Position numbers and translations under genes: made by a program. Source: a virus. Taken from it: a stretch of DNA of 64,000 bases. The stretch is from the IMG/VR virus record IMGVR_UViG_3300045988_138000; one strand, written 5' to 3'. The notes under the pieces were generated by a model that saw only the letters and a list, made by a program, of their open reading frames with translations, searched no databases and was not told the origin of the DNA. Below are positions 4,079 to 64,000 of this stretch, in pieces (within the stretch, counting starts at the first letter, position 1; every line of letters begins with the position of its first letter).

Positions 4079-4540
4079 TTACTCTTGAAGATACTCGCCG
4101 TATAGTTTCCACTCCTTATCATGGATGTTGCCGACAACCTCAAAGCTCTTCATCTTCTCTTGCAAGAGATCATCTGGGATGCCGTCTTCGAGACCACCTA
4201 CGTCAGAGTAGGGATTTTTTACCGTAACGATACCAAAGCAAGCTTTCTTCTCACAATAATACACTACGGCATAGTAGTCGTCGCGAGTATTGTATTCGAT
4301 TCTGCTATACGGATATTCGTCCGATCGCAATACGTCGCCTTCATAAATCTCCTTGCCGTTCTTGTCGGTGAAGCCAGTGAACTGGCATACAGTAGAGGGG
4401 TCAACAGCAAACGTAAAAACAGGGCGTCCATCACTGACTGGATTATTTTTTACGAGAGTCTGGTCACCCACATGGGACAAATCGCCGTAATTCCACTTCC
4501 CGTCCTCTATACTCTTACCCTTAAACTTAATTGTTCTCAT
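4079..4540 (-). CDS. YopX-family phage protein
   Basis: MRTIKFKGK...VCQFTGFTDKNGKEIYEGDVL...VVGNIHDKEW matches the YopX pattern as I recall it (F+.W, TGL.DKNGKEIYEGD, GNIHEN). Confidence 0.8.
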   Translation of the reverse strand: MRTIKFKGKSIEDGKWNYGDLSHVGDQTLVKNNPVSDGRPVFTFAVDPSTVCQFTGFTDKNGKEIYEGDVLRSDEYPYSRIEYNTRDDYYAVVYYCEKKACFGIVTVKNPYSDVGGLEDGIPDDLLQEKMKSFEVVGNIHDKEWKLYGEYLQE

Positions 4541-7468: not shown

Positions 7469-8170
7469 TTATTCGTCCGCTTCCACCACTTTCAACCCAT
7501 GCCTTGCAGCCGTTGCCTCGCGCCGTGCTGACCGCTGTGTCTCGCTGTCGTAGCAGATGATGTGAGGGTCGCCTAATGGGTCGGCAAAGTAGTTACACTG
7601 GCGTATCATAGCATGTTTCTGAGCCGAAGCCCTGTATGATAGCGGGATGGTGGGAACACGGAGGCGGGTCTTGCGCTCCAGTCCGTAGAAGGCACGCAGA
7701 TGCTCCTTGTGCCATAACTCCTTGCGCTGCTCGCTCTTCTTGCGCAACATTCGCTTGTATTTTCGAGGATTGTTGGCTTTGAGTTGCTTTATCGGACAGA
7801 AGCCGGCGGCAGTGAGACGGTGTCTGGCTTCTATACAAGCCTCGGATGGAGCCTTGCCCCGCAGGGAGTCGTAATAGCCGTTGCGCTCGCAAATCTTCTT
7901 CGTATCCTTGGCTTGCTGCTTACGGATGGCCTTCATGTCCTTCTCAAGCCTTAACTCGCGCTTGAAGCGTTGCAGGGTGGAAAAGCCGATGCCGAACCAC
8001 GTCATCATGCGGCGGTTGGAGTTCTTGGGGAAGAGCTTGCAGAAACGCTCCTTCAGCTCGCCTTCGAGATAATACTCATCTTTGCCAGCTTTGTATTTCG
8101 GTCGCGTAGGTATCTGCCACTTGGCTGGAGTGGTGGGCTTGTTGGGTGTCTTGGTATTACGGAAACTCAT
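7469..8170 (-). CDS. basic hypothetical protein (possible DNA-binding)
   Basis: 233 aa, rich in K and R. ATGA overlap with the upstream YopX gene. Confidence 0.6.
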   Translation of the reverse strand: MSFRNTKTPNKPTTPAKWQIPTRPKYKAGKDEYYLEGELKERFCKLFPKNSNRRMMTWFGIGFSTLQRFKRELRLEKDMKAIRKQQAKDTKKICERNGYYDSLRGKAPSEACIEARHRLTAAGFCPIKQLKANNPRKYKRMLRKKSEQRKELWHKEHLRAFYGLERKTRLRVPTIPLSYRASAQKHAMIRQCNYFADPLGDPHIICYDSETQRSARREATAARHGLKVVEADE

Positions 8171-8658
8171 GATGGTTGTTCCTTATCTTCTTTTTGTAAA
8201 TGCTCACCATATTGCTTCCACTCGGGGTCATGGATATTGCCGACGACCTCGAAGTTCTTCATTCTCTCTCGCGAGACGCAATCGAGGATGCCGTCAGAAA
8301 TTCCTTTTACGTCAGAGGCGGGATTCTTTACCTTCACGAGGTCAAAGCAAGCATCCTCCTCGCTGTAACACACTACGGCGTAGTAACTGTCGCGCTTGTT
8401 TAATCTTGAGCAACTGTACGGATATTCGTCCGATCGCAACACGTCGCCCTCGTAAATCTTCTTACCGTTCTTGTCGAGAAGACCGATAAACTGGCAGACG
8501 GTATCAGGGTCAATTTGATATACCCCAGTGAACCCCATTTTGCCTTCTTCTTCAACAAATCCCGAGATGTTTGATTTTCCATCAAGAGAATGGGCAAAAT
8601 CACCTGACACCCACTGTCCATACATAAGGCTCAAGCCTTTAAACTTAATTGTTCTCAT
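8167..8658 (-). CDS. YopX-family phage protein (paralogue 2)
   Basis: MRTIKFKGLS...VCQFIGLLDKNGKKIYEGDVL...VVGNIHDPEW. Clear paralogue of 4079..4540. Confidence 0.8.
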   Translation of the reverse strand: MRTIKFKGLSLMYGQWVSGDFAHSLDGKSNISGFVEEEGKMGFTGVYQIDPDTVCQFIGLLDKNGKKIYEGDVLRSDEYPYSCSRLNKRDSYYAVVCYSEEDACFDLVKVKNPASDVKGISDGILDCVSRERMKNFEVVGNIHDPEWKQYGEHLQKEDKEQPS

Positions 8659-9345: not shown

Positions 9346-10140
9346 CTACTCTTCTTTATCTTTCGGCTTTTCAATCAAGAACCCGATGTTGGCATGAATG
9401 TTACCAAGCTTATACCACTTTTGGCTGATAGTCATTACGTAACTGCTGAAGGCTTCATCTTCAATTTCCAATTCAAATTCCTCATCGGTATCAGGCTCGC
9501 CGTGTCTTACGTAACCTTTGCCAGGAGTATAGATTAGACGATGATAACCACCATTCTGACAGAGATACAGACCGCTGTTCTCATAATCCGAACTCCAAAA
9601 TTCCGGCTTATTTATATAGCAGAGCATCACATCACCATCGTAGATAGGGATATGTGATTTCTTGCCTTCGTTCTCACCTACATACTCCCTGGCATCAACA
9701 TAATCTACCTGTCGGGCGGTAGTCATCAATACATAGCCATTTTTTATCATTTCGGCTATCTCGACAAACGAAGCCTGACATTGCAGATCAAACTCCTTCT
9801 GGATACATTCATCACCTTTTTCAAATATGGCAAGGATTCTTGAATTTCCATACGCACCAGAGGCAGAGGAATCTTTGACAAGACTATTCAGCATCTGTAA
9901 TTTGCGAGCTTCCTGCGCCATACTTATCATAGTGTGAAAATAGTCGTCTGATTTATCGTTGATACACCAATACAGCCCGGAAGCCACCTTGCGCAAATAG
10001 CCGTACATATCCATCGCCACACGCTCCGAAATGCCATGCTGCATACACACGAACTTGTATTGATCTGGATAAAAATGTTCTACCAAATTGCAGAATGCCT
10101 GCATATTTTTGATGGTGCTTACATATTCTTCTGTTTTCAT
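9346..10140 (-). CDS. hypothetical protein
   Basis: 264-aa ORF with a TAGCGTATG junction at both ends. Confidence 0.65.
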   Translation of the reverse strand: MKTEEYVSTIKNMQAFCNLVEHFYPDQYKFVCMQHGISERVAMDMYGYLRKVASGLYWCINDKSDDYFHTMISMAQEARKLQMLNSLVKDSSASGAYGNSRILAIFEKGDECIQKEFDLQCQASFVEIAEMIKNGYVLMTTARQVDYVDAREYVGENEGKKSHIPIYDGDVMLCYINKPEFWSSDYENSGLYLCQNGGYHRLIYTPGKGYVRHGEPDTDEEFELEIEDEAFSSYVMTISQKWYKLGNIHANIGFLIEKPKDKEE

Positions 10141-10143
10141 ACG

Positions 10144-10539
10144 CTACTCATTTATTTTTAACTTCTCAAAATAGAACACTACAGGGGCATCAAATGCAGG
10201 AATAAGTAAACCGTATGCAATACTCATGTTTACCTGGAATTTAGCTGCACCTCTCAGCAACCCTTCTGCCTGTTGCTTGATGGCATTTCTGAACTGTTCG
10301 ACGCTCATATCACGTTTACGAAAATTACAGGCACGGCAAGAAGGCATATAGTTGCTGATTTTATCTTCTCCGTGGGAAACTATGAATTTCCCATCCTTAG
10401 CACTCCAGCGAGAGTAATAACCTCTATTTTTGGGAACAATATGATCGACCTGCATGTCCTCGTACTTTATCGATTTTCCACAATAAGCACAATGACCATC
10501 ATACATTTTGTAAACGCGAAGCCGTTCTTCTTTCTTCAT
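10144..10539 (-). CDS. HNH endonuclease
   Basis: CAYCGK...VDHIVPK...NYMPSCRACNFRK: the HNH (H-N-H with paired Cys) motif. Confidence 0.85.
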   Translation of the reverse strand: MKKEERLRVYKMYDGHCAYCGKSIKYEDMQVDHIVPKNRGYYSRWSAKDGKFIVSHGEDKISNYMPSCRACNFRKRDMSVEQFRNAIKQQAEGLLRGAAKFQVNMSIAYGLLIPAFDAPVVFYFEKLKINE

Positions 10540-10542
10540 ACG

Positions 10543-10917
10543 CTACTTCTTGTTATCGAATTTATTGCCAATAACTTTACACGTTATCTTCCCGTCCCAT
10601 GTTGTATAATTAGATAAAGAGTACAAAGCATTATCATAAATAGAGTGAATAAGGAAAGCACCTTGGTTAAAACAGATTTCTCCTATATTAGGACCTTCAA
10701 GTATATCTCCTTCCCAAACCTCATTGCCTTCACAATCTGTCAATCCTGTAAACTGACAGACGGTTTCATGGTCAACTCTGTGCACTATTGGTACATCAGA
10801 AAACTCGTCACTGGGGTAACTTATGCCAACATAACTTGTGCTATGTATCAAGTCGCCTTTTACCCATTCTCCGTTATCAAGACGTTTTGCCTTAAACTTG
10901 ATATTTTCTGTTTTCAT
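10543..10917 (-). CDS. YopX-family phage protein (paralogue 3, shorter)
   Basis: IKFKAKRLDNGEWVKGDL...VCQFTGLTDCEGNEVWEGDIL...KVIGNKFDN. Confidence 0.7.
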   Translation of the reverse strand: MKTENIKFKAKRLDNGEWVKGDLIHSTSYVGISYPSDEFSDVPIVHRVDHETVCQFTGLTDCEGNEVWEGDILEGPNIGEICFNQGAFLIHSIYDNALYSLSNYTTWDGKITCKVIGNKFDNKK

Positions 10918-45945: not shown

Positions 45946-46160
45946 TATTTAAATTAAAAAGTTATCAAATACATTTATTTTTAACGTTTATACACAATTA
46001 TATGTATTTGTAATAGGTATTATTTACATTTGTTTACAATTCCCTGATCTCTGTGATATGCTATAAAGTCTATAACGAGCTGCCAGGAGTGGGGGCACCG
46101 CTGCAAAATCTCTAAAATCTGTGATATACTATAATATGTATAACGTAACAAAGTGGGCAC

Positions 46161-46588
46161 CATTGAGGCGCACCAGGAACGGCGCAACGGTGCAACGGGC
46201 AACACTCCACACCTGGCAGCATCGAGGCACCAGGACGGCGCAAAATGGTGCAACGGACAACACTCCACGCCTGGCAGCATCGAGGCACACCAGGAAGGCG
46301 CAAATGGCACGGCGGCAATACTCCACACCTGGCAGCATTGAGGCGCCAGGAACGGCGCAAAAGGGCACGGCGGCAATACGTCCACACCTGGCAGCATCGA
46401 GGCGCACCAGGAACGGCGCAAAGGGTGCACGGGTAACACTCCACACCTGGCAGCATTGAGGCGCACCAGGAAGGCGCAAATGGCACGGCGGCAATACTCC
46501 ACACCTGGCAGCATTGAGGCGCACCAGGAAGGCGCAAATGGCACGGCGGCAATACTCCACACCTGGCAGCATTGAGGCGCACCAGGAA
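46161..46588. repeat. GC-rich tandem repeat array 1 (58-59-nt unit, about 7.5 copies)
   Basis: The unit is ctccacacctggcagcattgaggcgcaccaggaaggcgcaaatggcacggcggcaata. Copies start at 46205, 46263, 46321, 46380, 46439, 46497 and 46555. There are 15 CCWGG sites. Confidence 0.9.
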
Positions 46589-46590
46589 CG

Positions 46591-48430: not shown

Positions 48431-48878
48431 CTGGTGGCTGGTGGCTCCCTGGTGGCCGCCTCCCTGGTTCCAGTGGTGGAGGTGCCTCCCTGGTGGCTGG
48501 TGCCTCCCTGGTGGCTGCCTTCCTGGTGGTGCTGGTGGCCGCCTCCCTGGTTCCAGTGGTGGAGGTGCCTCCCTTGGTGGCTGGTGGCTCCCTGGTGGCC
48601 GCCTTCCTGGTGGTGTTGGTGGTGCCTCCCTGGTTCCAGTGGTGGAGGTGCCTCCCTGGTGGCTGCCTTCCTGGTGGTGCTGGTGGTGCCTCCCTGGTTC
48701 CAGTGGTGGAGGTGCCTCCCTTGGTGGCTGGTGTCCTCGTGGCTGGTGGCTGCCTTCCTGGTGGTGTTGGTGGTGCCTCCCTGGTTCCAGTGGTGGAGGT
48801 GCCTCCCTTGGTGGCTGGTGTCCTCGTGGCTGGTGGCTGCCTTCCTGGTGGTGCTGGTGGTGCCTCCCTGGTTCCTCG
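48431..48878. repeat. GC-rich composite tandem repeat array 2
   Basis: The core ctggttccagtggtggaggtgcctccc starts at 48464, 48547, 48630, 48684 and 48781, with a partial copy at 48868. Variable ggtggctg/cttcctggtggtg blocks lie in between. There are 16 CCTGG sites, all in the same orientation. Confidence 0.9.
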
Positions 48879-52596: not shown

Positions 52597-55242
52597 TTAG
52601 TAATTATTATTGTTGCTCATTATTCCTGCGTCAAGATTACCGAAAGTGGTTTCCGTCTGTATTGAATAGATTTTTTCGTGAAATTCGGGTGCCATGTACG
52701 TTGCGCTAAAGGAAGCTATCTGTACATAGAAGGATGGCCTTGTCACGCTCTGTCCCTTTTTGATGGCAGGCACCAGCTTTGTGTTGTCGTAGACCTTGGC
52801 ATCCGCAGTAAGGAACACGCCATCCGCAAGATTTGTCAGCGCACCATTCTTCACCATTGTGCGGCTCGTAAACGTCCTTCCGTCGGCTGCACTCGCAAGG
52901 TCGTAGGTACTCAATCCGTTAGCCGAGTCGGCTACTATCTTTCCGTTCACCCTTGGTGCTGAGTAACGATACAGGGTTGTCTGTTTTCCCGTCGCACCCT
53001 TAACGAAAAGAATGTAGTTGTTATCCTTCATTGCCGTGTACCACGTCTTAGTGGTGTCAACCCACGGAAGATCTACATTCTCTCCAAGCGGAGTCGTCAG
53101 TCCTGCATCCTCTGCTTTGATATATCGCGCAGAAGTTATCTTCGCGTCGGTCTTGCTGAGCGAGGCGACACCAGCAGGGCCGAGGTCGTAGAGAAAGTTT
53201 CCGTTGTCGTCGTAGTACGACAGCACGGCCTGTCCCGAACTGTTCAGACCGAAGCGGATGTTTGCAGTTCCTGCCTTTCCGTAGATATTGATAAGGCCAT
53301 CGGCTATCCTTACCATCTGTCCGTTGAGTCCTTGCGATGTAAGCATCTGCGCCAGTATCAGAGCCGCATTGATGGCTCCGTCTGTAAAGAGCGCGGCTGT
53401 CGTAGTCTGACCGGTAGAGAGTGTGTTCTCTACCTTGATTTTCTCGCCATACAGAGTTACTCCGCTCGACGTAATCTCCAGTCCCGCCGCCTTGGCTGTG
53501 GCTCTGTCGATGAGGTCGGTCTTCCGTTCTGTATAATCAGTAAGTTGCGCGCCTTCCTCCAGCTTCGGCTTTGTCACCCAAGCTTCAGTATCGCCTGGAA
53601 CACGTATCAGCACCTTGTCTGGAATCACCTCTGCTCCCTCGCCGGTATAGTCCTCTATTCGCCAATGCACCCAGTACCGCTTATAGGTCGAGGTGAGTGC
53701 GAGCTGTGCGTATCCGTCAGCCCTGCCGTCCGTATATTCGTTTCCTTCACAGGTTTCTGTATATACATTTGCATGAACGCTGTCTCCATAGAGAAAAACG
53801 TTGATGTTCCCGCTGCCCTTGGCAACGAAGGAGAACACATAGTCCTGATTCTTTACTATTCTCGCCTGCCCAGAAAGGGTAGCCGTTGTTGGAAATTTAT
53901 ATTGCAAGGCTTCTGTGAACTGAGACTCTGCCGAGTTGTTTTTGTTGTACAATATACCGTAGCAGCCTTCGTATTTTTCAAACATAATCAGTCCGCTGGC
54001 AAACTGGAGATTGCTTTTGTCAGACGATTTGGTCAGTGCCATCGTGTCCTCCAAAAGGTTTCCGCCCACATAGTCGTAGTCCGTTTCCGCAGGAGTCCAG
54101 CCTGTGTACTCGCTTCCTTCCTCCAACATCGGCATACATATCCATCCGTTACCAGAGGCAGTATAACCAAAGGTTCCGTCCACGGTTATGCCATTGTAGA
54201 CAAAGATATTAACTTCGATAAACTCTGCGTTGCCCGTATTGAAGGTGTAGTTCACCTGCCTCCACCGATTCACCTCGTTCTCCTTCGTCAGCCAATCCAT
54301 TTTACCCGAGGTGGCAGTAATTCTGTCCCCTCTATTGCCATTCAGCGCAGCCATCTTGAAAACTTCTGAATGAACCTGTAAGTCCTTCGTGTCGCACTTT
54401 ATCCATGCGGAAAATGTATAATCGGTGTTCTTCTTCACAGCGATGCCGTTGATGGTCTGTCCCCAGAAAAGTCCCTTGTACTGAGGCGTTCCGTTACCCG
54501 TCACCGAGAAGCGGATGGCATTATGTCCGTTCACGCCCTGTGTTATCGTAGGCTGGAATAGTCCGTCCGAATAATATATATCACCCTTCCTCGTCAGTGC
54601 CGTATCTCGCAGTAGGTTATGCCGTCCTTGCTGGCTCTGAGTAACACTGAGAGTAATCTCCTTAGCTGTCTGCTTGATAGTAGATGTGTAGGCGTTGAGA
54701 ACGGTAGGATTACTTCCTTTGAGGTCGTTCTCCAATGCCTTAAATTGCGACTGATACTGCTTTGCCGTAACCTTTACACTACCCATATACTTCGACACGT
54801 TCACCGAGAATGGAACCTGCGCAAAATAGACAACACCAGCGTAAACAAATTGTGCGACCGCATAGCCTGATGTTGCAGAAACCTGTCCTTGATTTACCCC
54901 GTCAACAATTACATCGTTCTTTGCAATATTACTGCCTGATACAGATACTTCGATATATCCATCCTTCTGTATTGCACCACATTTACAATTTACACACAAA
55001 TCATCCCTTGAGTTAATATTGCTGCATTCATTAGAGATATTCAGGTTACCCTTCATTATCTTTACCTTCGCAACCTTTGATATGCTAACAGGTACAATTC
55101 CATTGTCATCTGTGTCAAAAACGAGCGGAGCGTCTTCGACAATAATAGAAACGGCATCCTTGCCAGGCTTGCCTTGCGGACCTGGCGCACCATCCTTTAT
55201 CGCCGCTATCGTTATCTGGCCCCTCGCCAATAATACTGCCAT
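52597..55242 (-). CDS. tail fibre / receptor-binding protein
   Basis: 881 aa. The N-terminus reads LARGQITIAAIKDGAPGPQGKPGKD, a short collagen-like G-X-Y run. It is long and rich in beta strands. Confidence 0.65.
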   Translation of the reverse strand: MAVLLARGQITIAAIKDGAPGPQGKPGKDAVSIIVEDAPLVFDTDDNGIVPVSISKVAKVKIMKGNLNISNECSNINSRDDLCVNCKCGAIQKDGYIEVSVSGSNIAKNDVIVDGVNQGQVSATSGYAVAQFVYAGVVYFAQVPFSVNVSKYMGSVKVTAKQYQSQFKALENDLKGSNPTVLNAYTSTIKQTAKEITLSVTQSQQGRHNLLRDTALTRKGDIYYSDGLFQPTITQGVNGHNAIRFSVTGNGTPQYKGLFWGQTINGIAVKKNTDYTFSAWIKCDTKDLQVHSEVFKMAALNGNRGDRITATSGKMDWLTKENEVNRWRQVNYTFNTGNAEFIEVNIFVYNGITVDGTFGYTASGNGWICMPMLEEGSEYTGWTPAETDYDYVGGNLLEDTMALTKSSDKSNLQFASGLIMFEKYEGCYGILYNKNNSAESQFTEALQYKFPTTATLSGQARIVKNQDYVFSFVAKGSGNINVFLYGDSVHANVYTETCEGNEYTDGRADGYAQLALTSTYKRYWVHWRIEDYTGEGAEVIPDKVLIRVPGDTEAWVTKPKLEEGAQLTDYTERKTDLIDRATAKAAGLEITSSGVTLYGEKIKVENTLSTGQTTTAALFTDGAINAALILAQMLTSQGLNGQMVRIADGLINIYGKAGTANIRFGLNSSGQAVLSYYDDNGNFLYDLGPAGVASLSKTDAKITSARYIKAEDAGLTTPLGENVDLPWVDTTKTWYTAMKDNNYILFVKGATGKQTTLYRYSAPRVNGKIVADSANGLSTYDLASAADGRTFTSRTMVKNGALTNLADGVFLTADAKVYDNTKLVPAIKKGQSVTRPSFYVQIASFSATYMAPEFHEKIYSIQTETTFGNLDAGIMSNNNNY

Positions 55243-55286
55243 ACTCTTTCATTTTTTTATTAATAAAAAATAAGGGTGAGGTGCCC

Positions 55287-56330
55287 TTATTTAGACACCT
55301 CACAAGTAAACGTGCCTCTCACTGCCACGTCAGCGTTGGACACCGTGACGTAAGGCTTGTTCGAAGCATTCACCGCACTTGATGTACCGTTCCAGTTCGT
55401 GGCTACACCGCTGGCATTGTACTTCGTCCATTTGTAGATGTAGTTCGAGGCATGGTTGCTGTCTGCCTTCACCGCTGCACCATCCTCCACTACCTTGCCG
55501 TCTTTCCAGAGTCGGGCGTAAAGCTCCGTCGACTGCGCACCGTTCACTATCTTGTCGCCGGTCAGCGAATACACCTCCACCACGTACGGGTCGCTCGCAT
55601 CGAAGAACGTGATGATAGCGCTGGCGGTATCAGCACCGTCCTTCACCGTACAGCGGAAAGTCTGGAAGTTAAGCACGTCGTTGGCGCTCACATTCAGAGT
55701 GCTCACGCCGCCCGAAGTGCTCACGTTGCCCGAAGCCACGGCGTCCCATGTTCCTGCACTGATATTCAGCACCTCCCAAGTCATTGATGTCATGGTGGTG
55801 TCCTGCACGTTGCCACGGAAGAACTTGGCTATAGCACGCAGCTTCTTGCTGTTGTTGGTCGAGTCGAACGTATTGCCGTCGGGGGTCTCAATCTGCACCG
55901 TCTGAAGCGCACCGCCACTCTTGGCCAGTGAAATGGTCTTGTAGCCGATACACGTAGTCGTAGCCTTTGTCTCCGGGTCTGTGTATTTGCACGACCACTC
56001 GATGTTCTTCACGCTGCCGTTCTTGTCGATGTTGCTGGCGAGGTTAAGCTGATACGACTTGCCGCTCACAGGAGTGGCAGCCACACCATCCAACTTCCAC
56101 GACCATCCCGTACAAGCCGAGGTCGGAGCCTGGTCTGTAGCACTGCCCGTCACATATACACGGGCTGTTATCACGTTTGGTTCACTCGACGAGTAGTTCG
56201 GAGTGTACACACCCGTGTCGGGGGTGTAAATCTGAGTCTCGCCCTTAGAGCATTGTGTAAAACACTGAACGGCCTTGCCGTCATTGAGGTCAACGATAGT
56301 AATCTGACCATTAGCTAATACTTTTGCCAT
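55287..56330 (-). CDS. tail fibre-like protein
   Basis: The N-terminus LANGQITIVDLNDG is homologous to that of the 881-aa protein. It is rich in T, S and beta strands. Confidence 0.6.
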   Translation of the reverse strand: MAKVLANGQITIVDLNDGKAVQCFTQCSKGETQIYTPDTGVYTPNYSSSEPNVITARVYVTGSATDQAPTSACTGWSWKLDGVAATPVSGKSYQLNLASNIDKNGSVKNIEWSCKYTDPETKATTTCIGYKTISLAKSGGALQTVQIETPDGNTFDSTNNSKKLRAIAKFFRGNVQDTTMTSMTWEVLNISAGTWDAVASGNVSTSGGVSTLNVSANDVLNFQTFRCTVKDGADTASAIITFFDASDPYVVEVYSLTGDKIVNGAQSTELYARLWKDGKVVEDGAAVKADSNHASNYIYKWTKYNASGVATNWNGTSSAVNASNKPYVTVSNADVAVRGTFTCEVSK

Positions 56331-56354: not shown

Positions 56355-58670
56355 TTATATGTTACTATTAATAGTCTTTGTATCTGATACGCACACACTA
56401 CATCCGAATTGTGCCTGTCTGTCTACGTCGTCACGTGTTATAAGACAGTTCCGGCCAATCCCCTCATGCAGCTTATTCCATACAGCATCATCTTCGGCAT
56501 CAGCCGATTGTCGCCACCACGACCATGAGCTGTTGCCCACGGTGTCGCTTATGTCCTCGCCATTGCGTAGCAGCGTTGCCTTCAGCGTCATTTCGCCCGA
56601 ACCGTTAATCATCACCGTGCCCGTATCGCTCGTTATCATTATCTGATAAGCCACGCCGTCCTCGCCCTTGTCTCCCTTCTCGCCTTTGCTTCCAGATAGA
56701 ACTTTTTTCCATTGTGTCGAGCCGTCAGAAGGCTCACCTGTTACGTCCTCCTCTGAATTGGCAACACACACCCAAACGGCATTATTGTGATTTACTTGGT
56801 CGTTCTTATGATAGGTATTTCCTTCTACCCAGTCACCTCTATAATTGATGATATTAATAGTACTGCCGTCATCCGAAATCAATTCAAAGTGTGAGGAATT
56901 GATTTTCGTTCCACCCTTCGGTGAAGTCTCGAATACCGACAGAGATACTTCTTTGTTCTCGCCATTTACGCTTTTTGTGATAGTATGCTTGTACTCAGAG
57001 ATATTAGCATAGCAAGCGATACGAGGAGCATAGTCGCCAGTTGTCTCAAGGATAATCACGTTCTGCCTGTCCGTCTTGTCGTACTCAAGATTGCCATTAC
57101 GATGTCTGTTGCCGTCCAGCACGATTGTGTCGCCCTCAGCAGGGTCTCCCTTTATCTCAACAGGCGCATTCTTCTCTGTATATCCGTCTAAGCCTTCGGA
57201 ATGCTTGCCAACGACAATCCAAGCAAACGCCTGACCATCGTACAATTCCACCTGTTCTTCTCTCGTCTGCTCCTTACCAGCTTCGTCAAGATAAGTCTCC
57301 GTTTTAGTGCCGTATATCTTCTCATTTTGCGTAGATACGCCACCATCAGGAATAGTACGCCAGTAACTCTTATTACTTGTATCACTATATGCTCCACCAG
57401 CCACAATCTCGCCAATAGTCTGACAGCGCACTTGGTCGCCCTCCTGCCAGTAGTTCATCGTGGCAGTAGTTCCGTTGTCAGCTAAGAGATAGCATTTCCA
57501 GCCAGCGCATTCTGCATCATCCGCAGTTGTTTCTACCCAAAATATAACACCGTCAGCAGATACCGATTCCTTGACAGGCACAACTTTGATAAGCTTGCTA
57601 CCAGCTCCAGATAAATAGATGTTGCCTCCAGAATAAGACAGCTTGCGTACATCTAATTCGTGGAATATCGCCTTGCCCCAGATGGTGAGGTTCGTAACGA
57701 AGGCGTGATATTTTCCGTTATCCTTCTTAACAGCGAAACCCTGCTCTGCTTCGTTGTCGTAGTCGATGGACTGTAACGACTCAAAGATGGCACGTCCTGC
57801 CTCGTCTATCAACGCTCCTCCCTTACCAAAGTAAGCACCTCTGTTCAGCTTTACTAAAGCCTCGCTCACCAGTCCTTTGATAAAGGTAATCATGCCGTTT
57901 ACCGTGTCATCATTCTCTTTGGATAAGAAATGGCGTACACCAAACTGCCCAAGGAACTCAGGAGTAACCACTTTGTTGGCTGACGTATCATCGGTGTTTT
58001 CTGTCGCTACGCCAACGATTTTATGTCCATTCAAGAAAAGGGTGGCGATAGTGGCTGTCGCTGCCTTGAGCGTAGTAAATGCTGCCACAGAGATGGTCTT
58101 CAGGAACTTGATGGTGTCGTGTACTGACTCATATCTCCACCACTGACCCTCGCCGCCGGAAGCTATCGCTTCGTCGGTGGCAAGAGAACCGTATTCCACA
58201 GTGAGAGTCCACTCACGATACTTTTCTATGATGTCCTGATCGTTCTCATCCTTACCTACATTTTTGGTCAGGACCTCAGAGATTTCTCCTTGCAGATACA
58301 CATAGTAATAGTCCTCGTTGCCCACCTGCTTGTCCGGAGATGCAATAGACTTACCGTAGATGTCAATGCGCTCGCTGGGGAATACCACCATTGCCGTACC
58401 GTTGACGCCATTGCTGACGCGCGGAATGGCTACGTAAACATACTTAGCCTTTGCATCAGGAAAGAGAGAGGGATAAGCCACTAACGGCCAACGCTGATAG
58501 TTGTGCCCGGCATCGTAGCCCAGACCCTCAATGTCCTGCATATAGCATAGAATAGAAGCACCACTCGCCACGCTACACTGGATGTAGTTAGGCTCACCCA
58601 TTGCGTTGAGTTGGATATAGAGCGCACTGCTCGAAATCCAATAATTCGTAAGTTTGACTTCTGTTGCCAT
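56355..58670 (-). CDS. large tail fibre/spike-like virion protein
   Basis: 771 aa, with the collagen-like run GSKGEKGDKGEDG near the C-terminus. Confidence 0.6.
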   Translation of the reverse strand: MATEVKLTNYWISSSALYIQLNAMGEPNYIQCSVASGASILCYMQDIEGLGYDAGHNYQRWPLVAYPSLFPDAKAKYVYVAIPRVSNGVNGTAMVVFPSERIDIYGKSIASPDKQVGNEDYYYVYLQGEISEVLTKNVGKDENDQDIIEKYREWTLTVEYGSLATDEAIASGGEGQWWRYESVHDTIKFLKTISVAAFTTLKAATATIATLFLNGHKIVGVATENTDDTSANKVVTPEFLGQFGVRHFLSKENDDTVNGMITFIKGLVSEALVKLNRGAYFGKGGALIDEAGRAIFESLQSIDYDNEAEQGFAVKKDNGKYHAFVTNLTIWGKAIFHELDVRKLSYSGGNIYLSGAGSKLIKVVPVKESVSADGVIFWVETTADDAECAGWKCYLLADNGTTATMNYWQEGDQVRCQTIGEIVAGGAYSDTSNKSYWRTIPDGGVSTQNEKIYGTKTETYLDEAGKEQTREEQVELYDGQAFAWIVVGKHSEGLDGYTEKNAPVEIKGDPAEGDTIVLDGNRHRNGNLEYDKTDRQNVIILETTGDYAPRIACYANISEYKHTITKSVNGENKEVSLSVFETSPKGGTKINSSHFELISDDGSTINIINYRGDWVEGNTYHKNDQVNHNNAVWVCVANSEEDVTGEPSDGSTQWKKVLSGSKGEKGDKGEDGVAYQIMITSDTGTVMINGSGEMTLKATLLRNGEDISDTVGNSSWSWWRQSADAEDDAVWNKLHEGIGRNCLITRDDVDRQAQFGCSVCVSDTKTINSNI

Positions 58671-58836: not shown

Positions 58837-59889
58837 TCAAAGTAAAAGCGAACCATTAATATCGATCACTACTTTAAACGACAAAGCATACATGTTGGTG
58901 TTGGTGTCATCCTGGATAGTGGTCTCGTCTTCCAAAAGAATGGTGCATGGAATCCAAATGCCGTGCGATAGAATCCATGCGTGTTCGCTCATGGCAAACT
59001 CGTGCAGATACCAGTCGAGCCAACTCTCGTCGAGCGGGTCAGTAGTGAGATTCCAAGTTTCCTGATCATTCTGCTTCTTGACCGACGCACGAGAGAAGGA
59101 GTTAAAAGTCTCCTGCTTTGCCACAATATACGATTCTGTTGTAAGCGCCATCTTACGGCTGTAGGATTTCGGCAGACTGACACTCTCAAGTACACCAAAC
59201 AGATTGATGAAGCGTATGGTGTAACGGTTGCTCGCCTCTGTAGCAGGAAGCGCATAGAGTTGGTGAGTACCGACGGTCTGCAGTCCTTCCTGCGTAATCT
59301 CCTTAGAGACAGACGTGGGAGGAACCAGGGTCGGACTGTTACTGAGCAGTTGTTCCGTCTCGTAGGGTGTAGTATAAATAAAGGTGTCACCCACAACGAC
59401 GGGTTGCGGCAAAGTGTTCGGCTTTCGGGTGAAAGAAATGACTCCCTTACTGGGTCCAGACTGAAGGCGCACCATATCAGAGAAAGCACCCGCAATGCAG
59501 CGAAGGTTCGTGTTGCCGGTTTCGTCGGGCTCTTGAGGATAAAACACCTCGCCTACATTGGTAAATATCTCACCATTGTTATCCATATATTCATCGTAGG
59601 CATGGACGTACCAGCTCACGAAAGGATAGGTTGTCGGCTCGGGAGTATATTTATAGGAGTCGAGTGCCGCACGCAAAGCTGACGATACATCAAGCGATAC
59701 ATCAGTGCCCTCTTTGGTGACGGGTTCATTGAGTTTTATGACATCATAGCTGCCGTCATTGTCGAACACGACCTCTACGACGACACGATGAAAAGAAGGC
59801 GTATTCTCAAAAGCTGACGGAGAGATGGTAAAAGTAATCGGGTTGCCAGCAAGGATTGAACCAGATGTAAGTAAAATTTTCTGTGCCAT
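58837..59889 (-). CDS. virion-associated hypothetical protein
   Basis: 350-aa ORF within the fibre cluster. Confidence 0.55.
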   Translation of the reverse strand: MAQKILLTSGSILAGNPITFTISPSAFENTPSFHRVVVEVVFDNDGSYDVIKLNEPVTKEGTDVSLDVSSALRAALDSYKYTPEPTTYPFVSWYVHAYDEYMDNNGEIFTNVGEVFYPQEPDETGNTNLRCIAGAFSDMVRLQSGPSKGVISFTRKPNTLPQPVVVGDTFIYTTPYETEQLLSNSPTLVPPTSVSKEITQEGLQTVGTHQLYALPATEASNRYTIRFINLFGVLESVSLPKSYSRKMALTTESYIVAKQETFNSFSRASVKKQNDQETWNLTTDPLDESWLDWYLHEFAMSEHAWILSHGIWIPCTILLEDETTIQDDTNTNMYALSFKVVIDINGSLLL

Positions 59890-59952
59890 ATCTATAGATA
59901 AAACAGGAGATGAATGTATGTGCTGAGATTTTTCTTGGGGCTACGAAAGTCG

Positions 59953-60201
59953 CTAAGACATTTTTTTCTCTACGATAGCTGTCACATCAGACACAAGTTG
60001 TAAGTCTTTTGCCTCTTCGGGCGAAATCTTGATATGGAACATGGTTTCGGTCTGAAGAACGAGATCGAGAAAGTCGATAGACTCAAGAGCGAGATCATCA
60101 CGCAGGTTAGAGCTGTCGGTCACTTCTGCTGTCGATGCCCAAGGTGTGCGCAGGCCTTCAACTATATTGAACACCCGCTGGCGAATATCTTCTTTGTTCA
60201 T
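59953..60201 (-). CDS. acyl carrier protein
   Basis: 82 aa. LRDDLALESIDFLDLVLQTETMF matches the ACP DLGLDSLD..EL..E.E.F pattern, with the Ser attachment site. Confidence 0.8.
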   Translation of the reverse strand: MNKEDIRQRVFNIVEGLRTPWASTAEVTDSSNLRDDLALESIDFLDLVLQTETMFHIKISPEEAKDLQLVSDVTAIVEKKMS

Positions 60202-61412
60202 AATGATTGGAATTTAGAAATGATGAATGACGAGTTGGTGCCTCCGAAGCCAAAGGCATTACAAAGAATATGGTGTGATAAGTACTCGCGTGACTGCATG
60301 ACGAGATTGAGCTTAGGAAAAGCATTCTCGGCTGTGGTAGCCGCACCGAAGATAGTGTCTGTGTTGAGCATCATGGCGGCTTGAACGGCCTGCGATACAC
60401 CAGCCATCCAGCACTCGTGACCCGTCATACCCTTGGTGGCTACGATATAAGGGCTCTCGGGGAACACCTTTCCGATGGCTTCTGCCTCTGCAGCATCGCC
60501 CTGCTCCGTACCTGTGGCATGGGCGAGGAGTACATCTATCATTCCGGCATCGAGTCCAGCCGACTCTATGGCCTTAATCATTGCCACCTCTTCCTGATAA
60601 GCATCCGGGGTACAGATGCTGGTGCCATTAGTGGAAAAGCCGTAGCCTGAAAGTTCTGCCACGGGCGAGACTTCATAATCCTCAAAACGCAAGCTGTCGG
60701 AAGGCTCAAGAATGACACAGGCTGCACCACCCGAAGGAGCAAGACCATTGCGGGCTTTGCCGAAAGGCTGCACCTTGTCGGGCGAGAAAACGCCCATGGC
60801 ATCAAACGACAGCATGGAGAAGGGACCAGTCTCCTGTGCTCCAACGACAATCACCATGTCGGTTTGGCGCGCATCAAGAAGCATCTTGGCAAGACCGATG
60901 GCATGACCTCCTCCGGCACAAGCCCCGCTGACGGTAAGCGAGAGTCCTTTCAGTCCGTAGATAGAGGCGAGGCTCATGCTGACGGTGGAATTGAGTGTGC
61001 GGAACACTGCACCTGCCCCTAAACGTCGGGTGTCGCGCTGTGTAATGGCAGTGGTCATTGCCTGATAGTTGTCTCCCGCCGTAGAGTCGTTGCTGACGAT
61101 GACCGATACATTGTGAGACTGCAAGAACTCGGGAAGAATATTGGCTTCCACCAGAGCCTCGTTGACGGCAGATAAGGAATATAGGGTCGGTTCGGAAAGA
61201 CATTGCCGTTGACCCCTGGTGAGTTTTGAAAACTTCCAAGGGTTCGGATCATTTATCTTTCCGCACAGGTCGGACTGATAACCTTTCTCGCTGCGCGCGG
61301 GGTCGTGGTGCAGACCGCACTCTCCATACGCCAGCTTCTGTGCGACGGAAAAGGTATCGTTGCCAAGACTGGAAACAATACCTGTGCCTGTGATTAATAT
61401 TTTTCTATCCAT
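60198..61412 (-). CDS. beta-ketoacyl-ACP synthase (KAS I/II, FabF/FabB-like)
   Basis: Trimmed to the ATG at 61412 (MDRKILITGTGIVS...). The catalytic Cys lies in VSGACAGGGHAIG. The His motifs are LLAHATGT and KGMTGHECWMAG. The C-terminus contains NAFGFGGTNSS. Confidence 0.85.
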   Translation of the reverse strand: MDRKILITGTGIVSSLGNDTFSVAQKLAYGECGLHHDPARSEKGYQSDLCGKINDPNPWKFSKLTRGQRQCLSEPTLYSLSAVNEALVEANILPEFLQSHNVSVIVSNDSTAGDNYQAMTTAITQRDTRRLGAGAVFRTLNSTVSMSLASIYGLKGLSLTVSGACAGGGHAIGLAKMLLDARQTDMVIVVGAQETGPFSMLSFDAMGVFSPDKVQPFGKARNGLAPSGGAACVILEPSDSLRFEDYEVSPVAELSGYGFSTNGTSICTPDAYQEEVAMIKAIESAGLDAGMIDVLLAHATGTEQGDAAEAEAIGKVFPESPYIVATKGMTGHECWMAGVSQAVQAAMMLNTDTIFGAATTAENAFPKLNLVMQSREYLSHHILCNAFGFGGTNSSFIISKFQSL

Positions 61413-61441
61413 GATTATGTTTGTTTGATTAAAGAATACTC

Positions 61442-63994
61442 TTACAAGGCATAGACGGTCAGTTCTACCTCTCCAATGCCTTCCTTGGCCGTGATAGTTG
61501 TATTCACCTTGTCGATAAGACATTTCACACCTCCGATGTTCCACCACGTCTTCCAGTGGTTAGGTATGTCGGCTATCTGTGCGACAGAAGCCGAACAGCG
61601 GATGATGTACTTCTTGCGGTTAAGCAGGAAATAGGCGTAGGGCAGAATGAAGGTATCGAAAAGACCGCGTGAGCGTATCTTGGTTATCACATTGCCGTTA
61701 GTGTCCACCTCGTCGGGGGCGCAGAGTGAAACATCCTTATATTCAGGCTTACTGAGCCATGACGGCTCTTTGAAAGCACGTATCTTGAGCGAGAAACGTT
61801 CACCTTTGCCTCTGCCTTCCTGAATACCATTATAGTCGAAGACATTGCCCATCATGTCAATAGAGTCGCAAGCAAGAGCATATTCGCCTGCTGCCGTGCG
61901 CCACTTGGAAGTACCGAAGTGGTCGTAGTTATAGTCATAGGGCTCTGTAGTTGCATTCGTACCGCCGCCTCGCATCATGGCCAAGGCAAAGCCCCATCGT
62001 GAATCGTCTTGAAGAGGCGAGTTGCCGTCTTCGGTGTTTGACGGGTCGTAGCTCTCGACGAGTTTCAACGACTGCTGCATATAGAAGTCGCAGAAAGGCG
62101 AGGAGATGGTCTGGTTGATGATTTGCTCGACAAACTCATGCTCCATGTCCTCATCGACATAGGCGCAGAGGATAGGCTGTCCTTCCTTGATAACGACACC
62201 ATAGGTTGTTGTCTTTGAATCGTCATAGTACTTTGCCGTATGAGAGCCGTAAGCAGCCTCTATCTCCTTGAAATAGTTGACATCATTGAACGGCACGGGG
62301 GTGAAGTCGATGGTGATGTCGTGGATGAAGTCTTCATTCTCCTCGCTGCAATCGCCATACTCCACACCCTTGTACTGGCCTACCTCGAAAAGCACAGGCT
62401 TGAGGTCGGCTGTAGTAGTGGCGTCGCCATTCACCTTCACGCGATAGGCATTGCCCGTCTTCGGGTCGATGTAGCATCTTTTATCGCCAGAACTTAAATT
62501 ATGAAAGAAGTCAACGTAATCTCGATCGTAAACCGTTTCGTTGTCTCCACTTCCCGGTTCGGGATAGTCGATATAGTCGTAGTCGGTAGCATAGCCCATA
62601 TTTTTATTCTTGCGGCTGTCCTTGACGTTCTGCTGCTGATCCTTGGCATCGCTCTCTTCGGAGTATCGCATACGTACACCCGTTATCTTCTCGCTGACGG
62701 GAATGATAGAATGAACGTCTGCGCGAAACGTGCGTGCTGGCTGTCCACTCTCGCGAAGCACGTCACGGATGAGGTAGGCCGTGACTTTCTTTTGCTCATA
62801 GTCGTAGGAAAACTTGATGCCGAAGGCGCTCTCCAAGGATGAGATAATCGTGCTGACACTCTCATCGGGGAAGTTGTCGCTGTTGGCCACCATATAGAGC
62901 ACGTTGGCCTGCACGTTGAACTTAGAGATTTGCGCCTCGATGCTGATACCTGTCACCTTTCCGCCCTCTTTTGTCGTCTCTCCCACCTGTATGTGTTCGG
63001 AAGTTCCTTCGTTAGTGGTAAGGGTGAGCTCGTTGACCGTCTTGTCCTCTGCCTTTACGATGTTGATTTTTCCACCACAACCGCGCGACTCCAACCAGGA
63101 GTTGATATGATCTTGCTTCTTGAAATATCCTTCCTTAATCTCGCCTGCCTTCTTTTTCTTGGCGATGACTTCGGGGTCTTTATCCTCATAGTATGTTCCG
63201 TGATGTGGATGCTCTTTGGTGTCGTAGGCGCAAACGGTGGTGAAGAAACAGAGGTGCTTCATATCCTCTATCTGCATCAGTGCCGACTTGTCGAAGGTGA
63301 CACCCAGGTGAGCAAACAGGCAGTCGAGAAAATAGAGTACATAGAAACAGATGCCCGACTGCGGACGGCGTGCGTCCAACACCCAATAGGGATAAAGATC
63401 CTCGTTGGTCCACTTGCAGTCCTTCGTGCTGATAACGTCGCTCGATGTGGTGCCATCGTCAGCAAGTCCGTGGTGCTTGTAGCAGATACGGGCGTTGCAA
63501 TAAGCTGCCGGACGGCCTGCGCCATCTGTCTCGCCATAGGCTGCCGACGTGTTGATATAGTCGCCATTCTTGGCGATGGCGGGCTCGTTGACTGTATTTC
63601 CGTTGGGGTAGGCTCGTGACGACTTTCTCTTAGCGTCGGCCTTCATGTGTAAAGGATAAAGGATATTGGTGGTGTACTCCTGGCACGATGCAGGATAGGA
63701 GAAGCCAAGAGCCTGCGGTTCGAGCACTTTACTTACACTTACGTGCTCGGCATGAATGGTTCGGGTGACAGTCTCATCATCCTTATGCTTTCCTCCCTCC
63801 ACAAACACACTGACATTTACAACAGGGTCGCTCTCGATGTCTACCCTTACGTTGCCTATCTTCTCGCCGATGATCAGTTCATCCTTGATGGGGATGTCAC
63901 GACAGTTGAGCGAACCGATGAGGTCGCTGAAACTCTGTCTGCCTGCATTAATACTCATAGAGAGCGAGTCTTTTATCTCTTCAGCATCCTGCAT
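61442..63994 (-). CDS. large virion/baseplate-type hypothetical protein
   Basis: 850-aa ORF with an ATG at 63994. It lies directly upstream of the KAS gene on the same strand. Confidence 0.6.
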   Translation of the reverse strand: MQDAEEIKDSLSMSINAGRQSFSDLIGSLNCRDIPIKDELIIGEKIGNVRVDIESDPVVNVSVFVEGGKHKDDETVTRTIHAEHVSVSKVLEPQALGFSYPASCQEYTTNILYPLHMKADAKRKSSRAYPNGNTVNEPAIAKNGDYINTSAAYGETDGAGRPAAYCNARICYKHHGLADDGTTSSDVISTKDCKWTNEDLYPYWVLDARRPQSGICFYVLYFLDCLFAHLGVTFDKSALMQIEDMKHLCFFTTVCAYDTKEHPHHGTYYEDKDPEVIAKKKKAGEIKEGYFKKQDHINSWLESRGCGGKINIVKAEDKTVNELTLTTNEGTSEHIQVGETTKEGGKVTGISIEAQISKFNVQANVLYMVANSDNFPDESVSTIISSLESAFGIKFSYDYEQKKVTAYLIRDVLRESGQPARTFRADVHSIIPVSEKITGVRMRYSEESDAKDQQQNVKDSRKNKNMGYATDYDYIDYPEPGSGDNETVYDRDYVDFFHNLSSGDKRCYIDPKTGNAYRVKVNGDATTTADLKPVLFEVGQYKGVEYGDCSEENEDFIHDITIDFTPVPFNDVNYFKEIEAAYGSHTAKYYDDSKTTTYGVVIKEGQPILCAYVDEDMEHEFVEQIINQTISSPFCDFYMQQSLKLVESYDPSNTEDGNSPLQDDSRWGFALAMMRGGGTNATTEPYDYNYDHFGTSKWRTAAGEYALACDSIDMMGNVFDYNGIQEGRGKGERFSLKIRAFKEPSWLSKPEYKDVSLCAPDEVDTNGNVITKIRSRGLFDTFILPYAYFLLNRKKYIIRCSASVAQIADIPNHWKTWWNIGGVKCLIDKVNTTITAKEGIGEVELTVYAL

Positions 63995-64000
63995 GACGAG

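Follow-up and report, generated by a model that had tools for sequence, protein, structure and literature searches.

The rhizobial pairs NodF/NodE and AcpXL/FabF-XL, each made up of an acyl carrier protein (ACP) and a β-ketoacyl-ACP synthase (KS), divert housekeeping type II fatty acid synthesis (FAS II). To our knowledge, condensing enzymes are nearly absent from described phage gene families. We analyzed a 64,000-nucleotide stretch of viral DNA, IMG/VR record IMGVR_UViG_3300045988_138000 (the whole stretch is referred to as the window), in which a KS gene and an ACP gene lie together beside tail fiber genes. The ACP belongs to phrog_5934, a family already annotated among phage auxiliary metabolic genes (AMGs), and a fabG-acpP-fabF set in predicted roseobacter prophages has been annotated as an AMG (PMC8224337).

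We give about an even chance to the interpretation that the pair in the window is a functional accessory cassette, of the AMG or moron type, in which a private ACP and a true KS build a specialized chain via the FAS II of the host. This interpretation is supported by intact, invariant catalytic residues, by ratios of nonsynonymous to synonymous substitution (dN/dS) of 0.03 to 0.30, and by retention of the pair in 58/58 and 61/61 loci in two separate surveys. Taken as a whole, the evidence speaks more for an accessory metabolic role of the cassette than for a morphogenetic one.

The KS and ACP genes and their conservation

The two genes are as follows.

60198..61412, minus strand: KS, 404 aa, with Cys165/His298/Lys327/His332 and a C-terminal NAFGFGGTN loop
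59953..60201, minus strand: ACP, 82 aa, with the carrier Ser in LALESIDFLDL; phrog_5934

In the 404-aa reading the KS gene starts with the ATG at 61412, and its stop codon and the ACP start codon share an ATGA at 60198-60201. A 449-aa reading from a GTG start was also considered and rejected: it overlaps the upstream gene, and the N termini of homologs do not back the longer form. The initial annotation of this DNA had reported the two open reading frames (ORFs), the ATGA overlap, a series of KS and ACP motifs, the tight coupling of the two genes, and their placement on the same strand as the tail fiber genes. All of these were found in the sequence as described.

The KS has the features of a KAS I/II-type enzyme. 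Both of its domains score above the Pfam gathering threshold (PF00109, 2e-26, 93.5 bits; PF02801, 2.4e-20, 73.1 bits; cutoff, 20.8), it carries the Cys-His-His-Lys set and the GFGG loop, and in alignment Cys165, His298, Lys327, His332, and NAFGFGGTN fall on the catalytic positions of FabB structures. The possibility that it is a chain-length factor (CLF) or a decarboxylating KS-beta was rejected, since the active-site Cys is kept and invariant and the usual Gln replacement is absent. The ACP match to PF00550 is just over the gathering score (1.2e-4; 22.7 bits versus the 20.8 cutoff), and in alignment to ACPs of known structure its ESID falls on DSLD, the phosphopantetheine site. The protein has a PP-binding domain and, where helix II begins, a Ser in a (D/E)S(L/I) motif; its top profile matches are AcpP-type subfamilies. 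Judged from sequence, the KS looks catalytically intact and the ACP looks genuine.

A search of IMG/VR with the KS recovered 59 loci, mainly on contigs of about 90 to 110 kb, which are designated group 1 here. The pair lies between g938, the gene for a conserved phage protein of about 938 aa, and g350, the gene for a 350-aa protein, and the order g938-KS-ACP-g350-fiber was preserved in all 58 of the matching loci with a full flanking set. The pair was also present in each of the 61 loci recovered independently via g938. Within group 1, sequence identities range from 59 to 99% for the KS, from 54 to 100% for the ACP, and from 67 to 99% for g938. The gap between KS and ACP ranges from -4 to +83 nt, with a single case of 363 nt, and the gap between ACP and g350 is commonly 1 to 2 nt. 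The KS catalytic residues are invariant across 58 phage homologs and also when cellular relatives are included, in an alignment of 15 sequences, and the carrier Ser of the ACP is invariant in 59 sequences. Pairwise dN/dS was 0.06 to 0.15 for the KS, 0.03 to 0.30 for the ACP, 0.03 to 0.13 for g938, and 0.08 to 0.33 for g350, which places the pair on par with its conserved neighbor g938. Both the KS and the ACP have therefore been kept as working proteins, with low dN/dS and no change in any catalytic residue or in the carrier Ser.

These results bear on whether the pair might be an inert passenger, that is, a recently captured host fragment with no phage function. Presence/absence polymorphism between related phages, described below, would be expected of such a fragment. 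However, the selection analysis contradicts this explanation (dN/dS of about 0.1, with invariant catalytic residues), the pair is kept in clades whose proteins differ in sequence by more than 50%, and there is no close cellular donor, the best cellular match being 42% identical. We therefore regard an inert passenger as extremely unlikely.

No relatives were found among GenBank phages by DNA or with the 1226-aa and g938 proteins as queries. Source names indicate Prevotella/Segatella metagenome-assembled genomes (MAGs) and 'Bacteriophage sp.', and one of the upstream genes occurs at 100% identity on a metagenome contig assembled from the human gut. The related protein clusters hold from hundreds to more than 1,400 member sequences. 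One relative (L062:20182-21224) has genes for Lcl_C (C-type-lectin-like) and bAvd proteins downstream of the fiber genes, an arrangement suggestive of a diversity-generating retroelement that targets a receptor-binding protein.

Cellular relatives of the KS

The initial annotation had proposed profile and phylogenetic placement of the KS. By profile it is neither FabB nor FabF, and its best cellular matches are KSs of flexirubin and aryl polyene (APE)-type clusters. Against the NCBIfam equivalogs the KS scored 192 bits for FabB (NF005935; cutoff, 630 bits) and 179 bits for FabF (TIGR03150; cutoff, 494 bits). With scores so far under both cutoffs, and with 28 to 31% identity to FabB, assignment as a FabB or FabF ortholog was rejected. 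No NCBIfam cutoff was reached, and no PHROG family matched the KS at an E value of 0.01 or below. Among 1.84 billion cluster representatives, the phage KS family accounts for a single representative, followed by about 12 standalone KS clusters at 33 to 46% and then by modular polyketide synthases and FabB-like proteins.

The resemblance to FabB (KAS I) and FabF (KAS II) consists of the two-domain thiolase fold, alignment over the full length, the Cys-His-His-Lys set, and the GFGG loop; the low identity to FabB and the missed equivalog cutoffs set the phage enzyme apart. It is possible, although on balance improbable, that the KS and ACP add elongation capacity so that membrane phospholipid synthesis is sustained through a long infection. 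The FabB/FabF-like character of the KS over its full length and the AcpP-type top profiles of the ACP are consistent with such a role, and the sets annotated in predicted prophages (PMC8224337) provide a precedent. However, the KS scores far below what is expected of either housekeeping enzyme, its closest cellular kin are in pigment and polyene clusters rather than fab operons, and the phage KS family split long ago from any host FabF. Furthermore, bulk fatty acid synthesis needs no private ACP.

The top GTDB matches of the KS, at 35 to 42% identity, are nearly all from Bacteroidota (Chryseobacterium, Flavobacterium, Dyadobacter, Chitinophagaceae, Prevotella, Alistipes, and other Bacteroidales), with proteobacterial FabB next at 28 to 31%. 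The clusters that hold the closest cellular KS-ACP pairs also occur in Bacteroidaceae. The gene order in these cellular clusters is aromatic amino acid ammonia-lyase, short-chain dehydrogenase/reductase (SDR) ketoreductase, KS, ACP, lipid A-type acyltransferase, 4HBT thioesterase, KS, ACP, KS, and Ketoacyl-synt_2. Flexirubin/APE biosynthetic clusters are organized as in these Bacteroidota loci (PMC3992019). From gene order, without direct comparison to the Cpin genes, the cellular KS would correspond in position to flxC. The phage ACP scored 22 to 33 bits against the KS-adjacent ACP of the clusters and 14 to 18 bits against the second ACP. The phage pair shares with the flexirubin/APE clusters the KS-to-ACP adjacency, the TGHECWM signature, and the catalytic set, but in the clusters an ammonia-lyase, a ketoreductase, a lipid A-type acyltransferase, a thioesterase, and further KS/CLF genes lie alongside.

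As far as sequence comparison reaches, the KSs of Bacteroidota flexirubin/APE clusters are thus the closest cellular relatives of the phage KS and not a demonstrated origin. Derivation of the phage KS from a host flexirubin/APE cluster, at which the best matches hint, was not established by the neighbor-joining (NJ) tree. The one pointer to polyene-type chemistry is best-hit identity, which suggests it. The matches to the KS protein in the GenBank phage collection are mostly bacterial contaminants. The best of these, at 40% identity, is in MT837464.1 (L063, 101-2848), which is filed as 'Bacteriophage sp.' In our reading of its translations (a NusG/UpxY-like ORF, an SDR, the KS, and lipoprotein-like ORFs) it looks like a Bacteroidales chromosomal fragment.

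Kinship with outer membrane pigment clusters also invites the proposal that the phage pair interferes with the host. The ACP and KS might serve as a malonyl sink or as a competitor of the aryl polyene/flexirubin or FAS machinery of the host, which would shut an envelope pathway, such as one for a protective pigment or a receptor-masking lipid. That the nearest kin are KS-ACP pairs of such clusters in Bacteroidota (Prevotella, Alistipes, Bacteroidaceae) is consistent with this, as is the lack of downstream enzymes in the phage (Pfam, about 98 of 100.8 kb, the scope of all statements on partner enzymes below). However, a decoy would not need all of the condensation residues to be invariant across 40 to 100% identity. 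We consider interference unlikely.

Mobility of the cassette and its genomic setting

A search with an upstream lipoprotein gene recovered about 20 further contigs of about 50 to 106 kb with the order u272-u594-u367-u358-u225-g938-g350. Identities of this sister clade (group 3) to the phage in the window are 96% for u272, 73% for u594, 55% for u367, 70% for u358, 26% for u225, 46% for g938, and 42 to 47% for g350. In the sister clade the g938 and g350 homologs adjoin, 29 to 50 nt apart, with no KS or ACP gene between them. None of the sister-clade contigs is among the best 80 of the 238 viral stretches with a KS gene, a set that extends to 28% identity at its lower end; the check for KSs in this group used two peptide patterns, so a very distant KS elsewhere in these genomes is possible. 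The pair thus shows presence or absence between related phages at a defined g938|g350 intergenic site, a moron-like distribution. Because this site is empty in the sister clade, a virion with g938 and g350 homologs can evidently be built without the pair. The u272 lipoprotein gene (phrog_200; L240-L271, around 10001-10816) is 95 to 97% identical across cassette-positive and cassette-negative clades, with flanks at 26 to 75%, which suggests that it recently recombined between these lineages.

The nearest relatives of the KS outside group 1 (group 2; P0242 and P0245) have 42 to 46% identity and are on viral contigs of about 100 kb. In group 2 the order is reversed, ACP then KS, and the pair directly follows a gene for a 1741- to 1941-aa protein that matches tape-measure PHROGs (9e-36). 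Replication genes follow the pair, in a stretch with primase-like, ThyX, Tad2-like, YopX, and methylase genes. In a full-length group 2 genome the pair is about 42 kb away from the u594-type gene, and in one variant (L209) it lies a few kb past the fiber genes. A few kb downstream from its ACP-KS pair, one group 2 contig has a gene for a protein with a Tad2-like (anti-Thoeris) domain (L206:16539-17267). Contigs of about 160 to 175 kb carry a KS at 34 to 36% identity (L215, and the four contigs L356-L358 and L360, each of about 170 kb). In one of about 160 kb (L215, 9989-11355) the order is KS then ACP, and from their translations the neighbors look like clamp loader, terminase, topoisomerase, and exonuclease genes, that is, replication genes. 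The cassette therefore appears to be present in a third, larger phage type.

In the NJ tree the group 1 KSs are monophyletic (bootstrap, 100) and sister to the group 2 representatives (bootstrap, 91). Because the divergence of the KS between groups 1 and 2 (about 45% identity) is similar to that of the structural proteins they share (35 to 46%), the data fit an old association of the KS with the phage lineage, after which the pair changed position and was lost at least once. Alternatively, the pair may have spread by independent transfer among phages.

The immediate neighbors of the pair in the window are as follows.

61442..64000, minus strand: g938, the C-terminal 850 aa of a conserved phage protein of about 938 aa; the ORF runs past the window end
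61413..61441, minus strand: g938-KS spacer, 29 nt; 17 to 205 nt in relatives, with hairpin and AAGGTAAAA-type repeat inserts
59890..59952, minus strand: ACP-g350 spacer, 63 nt; merely 1 to 2 nt in many relatives
58837..59889, minus strand: g350, a 350-aa phage-specific protein, predicted by AlphaFold2 (AF2) and Foldseek to be all-beta (Ig/FN3-like sandwich)
56355..58670, minus strand: 771-aa tail-fiber-like protein; the C-terminal part matches PHROG tail fiber families
55287..56330, minus strand: 347-aa tail protein; phrog_3267, E = 2.3e-59, full length
55276..55303, minus strand: terminator-like hairpin, an 11-bp stem followed by a T run, the strongest in the block
52597..55242, minus strand: 881-aa fiber-like protein with weak carbohydrate-binding-module matches

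The initial annotation had described the upstream gene as encoding an 850-aa virion-type protein. That length reflects the window end, since homologs are 932 to 954 aa and in a 99%-identical contig the gene starts 87 codons earlier, with an ATGA overlap with the preceding 225-aa gene (seen in L005). The virion-type label was not confirmed, as g938 had no match in Pfam, PHROG, or the PDB. An AF2 model of a g938 homolog was unusable (pLDDT, 29.7). Neither g350 nor the four upstream genes had a match in Pfam, PHROG, or PDB sequence searches. The AF2 model of g350 is of moderate confidence (pLDDT, 61.5) and all-beta, with beta-sandwich repeats and nothing more specific. Foldseek searches with it returned beta-sandwich arrays from the PDB (Ig/FN3/macroglobulin type) and many uncharacterized phage proteins in BFVD. 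As modeled, g350 looks like a beta-sandwich protein and not like an enzyme.

The short gaps on both sides of the pair that had been noted initially are real, although they measure 29 and 63 nt rather than 30 and 64. The earlier statement that no promoter or terminator isolates the pair holds for sigma-70-type promoters, intrinsic terminators, and the Bacteroidota -7 motif (TAnnTTTG), none of which was found between the pair and its neighbors; Bacteroidota promoters are poorly covered by prediction tools, and the missing signals do not establish cotranscription. The hairpin at 55303-55276 straddles the stop end of the 347-aa gene (17 nt) and the 44-nt spacer before the 881-aa gene. In relatives (L006-L058; for example, L006:9878-10000) the g938-KS spacers are 54 to 205 nt long with recurring modules, compared with only 29 nt in the window. 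The modules include an element of about 66 nt with a CCCAGGG...CCCTGGG hairpin, a CCAGCGAT...ATCGCTGG hairpin, and AAGGTAAAAA repeats, and they resemble regulatory hairpins or small elements that can insert between genes.

From this setting the initial annotation had judged that the two genes look like late genes of the virion module. In such a role the pair might supply an acyl or polyketide decoration for a tail or baseplate protein, or a lipid cofactor for adsorption or ejection. The group 1 pair is flanked by g938 and g350, which share its strand and leave only short gaps, in group 2 the pair directly follows the tape-measure-like gene, and no promoter or terminator sets it apart. A link to the virion stays in view mainly because tail-related genes adjoin the pair in both architectures despite their rearrangement. 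However, the pair is not kept wherever the flanking structural genes are kept. The sister clade has g938 and g350 adjoining without it, so the pair is not needed for this virion type. In the full-length group 2 genome replication genes come after the pair and the u594-type gene is about 42 kb away, and the pair of the larger phage (L215) is amid replication genes. In addition, no acyltransferase was found, and g350 looks like a plain beta-sandwich. Same-strand placement and the lack of isolating signals thus stand from the initial assignment, but the step from position to a morphogenetic role is undercut by the empty sister-clade site and by the differing placement and order elsewhere. Sporadic presence together with a private promoter and terminator had been named initially as grounds for abandoning that role; presence is sporadic, but a private promoter or terminator was not found. 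The synteny survey proposed in the initial annotation accordingly gives complete retention within group 1 and absence from the sister clade. The empty-site evidence weakens the case for a link to morphogenesis, and we consider a function in the virion unlikely.

A more specific form of this idea, which we rate as very unlikely, is that in the pair-bearing clades a lipid or polyene-type group on the tail tip (for example, on g938, g350, or the tape-measure-like protein) tunes adsorption or ejection to particular Bacteroidota envelopes. If so, virion proteins would carry a covalent or cofactor modification that derives from FAS and is encoded by the phage, and the pair-less sister clade would infect hosts for which the modification is not needed.

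Two repeat arrays elsewhere in the window were also noted. Positions 46156-46590 hold a tandem repeat of 58-bp units (7.4 copies, 85% matches), and positions 48431-48875 hold a G+C-rich tandem array with periods of 18 to 151 bp. Only low-complexity ORFs were found in either region, and the arrays are possibly iterons or an origin, or part of a repeat-protein gene.

Possible role and comparison with known systems

The initial annotation had listed no acyltransferase, reductase, dehydratase, thioesterase, or phosphopantetheinyl transferase (PPTase) near the pair. This holds, and extends to about 98 kb of the approximately 100.8-kb genome, in which Pfam showed no PPTase, malonyl transferase, acyltransferase, reductase, dehydratase, or thioesterase and no other lipid gene. 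The scan covered the other window ORFs of at least 85 aa, about 29 kb of the same or near-identical contigs, and the Pfam annotation of ±10 kb in a relative; about 2 kb between L280 and L364 lies outside it. Because Pfam shows no partner enzymes or PPTase in this span, the pair would need host enzymes, including host AcpS. What the scan turned up was methylases, HNH, ligase, ParA, sliding clamp, GH108 lysozyme, holin, ThyX, and guanylate kinase. Three YopX-domain paralogs are encoded in the nonstructural half of the window (4079-4540, 8167-8658, and 10543-10917). Outside the window, a stretch in L280 or L364 has an ORF for a LysR-type regulator (HTH_1, 2e-20; LysR_substrate, 4.5e-26) together with guanylate kinase, ThyX, holin, and a weak radical-SAM match. 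A LysR-family regulator is unusual for a phage.

If the pair is an accessory cassette, the phage ACP would be phosphopantetheinylated by host AcpS in the infected Bacteroidota cell and loaded with malonate by host FabD. The phage KS would then carry out decarboxylative Claisen condensations on the phage ACP, with host FabG, FabZ, and FabI contributing any later reduction steps, so that a specialized acyl or polyene-like chain would be assembled or extended on a phage-private carrier. The product would most likely end in an envelope lipid or pigment of the host and not in the virion.

Several observations weigh against this model. No acyltransferase that would deliver a chain was found in the phage. 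In the NJ tree the phage KS clade falls outside the flexirubin/APE clade, with deep nodes at 42 to 68%. The Bacteroidota host is deduced only from the names of MAGs (Prevotella/Segatella). Finally, the pair adjoins tail-related genes in both of the ~100-kb clades, baseplate/fiber-like genes in group 1 and the tape-measure-like gene in group 2, which allows for a link to the virion.

A KS and a private ACP have been kept under purifying selection across a deep and abundant lineage of human gut phages. Redirection of host FAS II toward a specialized chain by the pair, if it occurs, would give Bacteroidota phages an auxiliary function of a new, lipid-directed class, and the envelope lipids or pigments of major gut bacteria could be affected. 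The cassette-positive and cassette-negative clades, with modules that are otherwise collinear, provide a natural contrast for probing the role of the cassette.

The initial annotation had suggested that a KS and ACP pair in this position points to something new for phage morphogenesis modules. We found no published account of the arrangement, and no description in the literature of a diverged, long-retained KS-plus-ACP cassette in gut Bacteroidota phages. The phage lipid AMGs that have been described (phrog_5934; the prophage set of PMC8224337) resemble the pair in being a phage-borne ACP, with a KS in the prophage case, that is read as metabolic reprogramming. In contrast to them, the KS studied here has no PHROG and is highly diverged from any host gene, and the pair has been retained over deep divergence in an uncultured family of ~100-kb gut phages that lacks GenBank phage relatives.

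For its mechanism we take the rhizobial systems as a guide; NodF/NodE are named in PMC9542644 and PMC5686131. Like NodF/NodE and AcpXL/FabF-XL, the pair would be a minimal dedicated ACP and KS that lean on housekeeping FAS II. The rhizobial pairs differ in that their acyltransferase and acceptor are known (NodA, LpxXL), and the analogy between them and the phage pair concerns arrangement.

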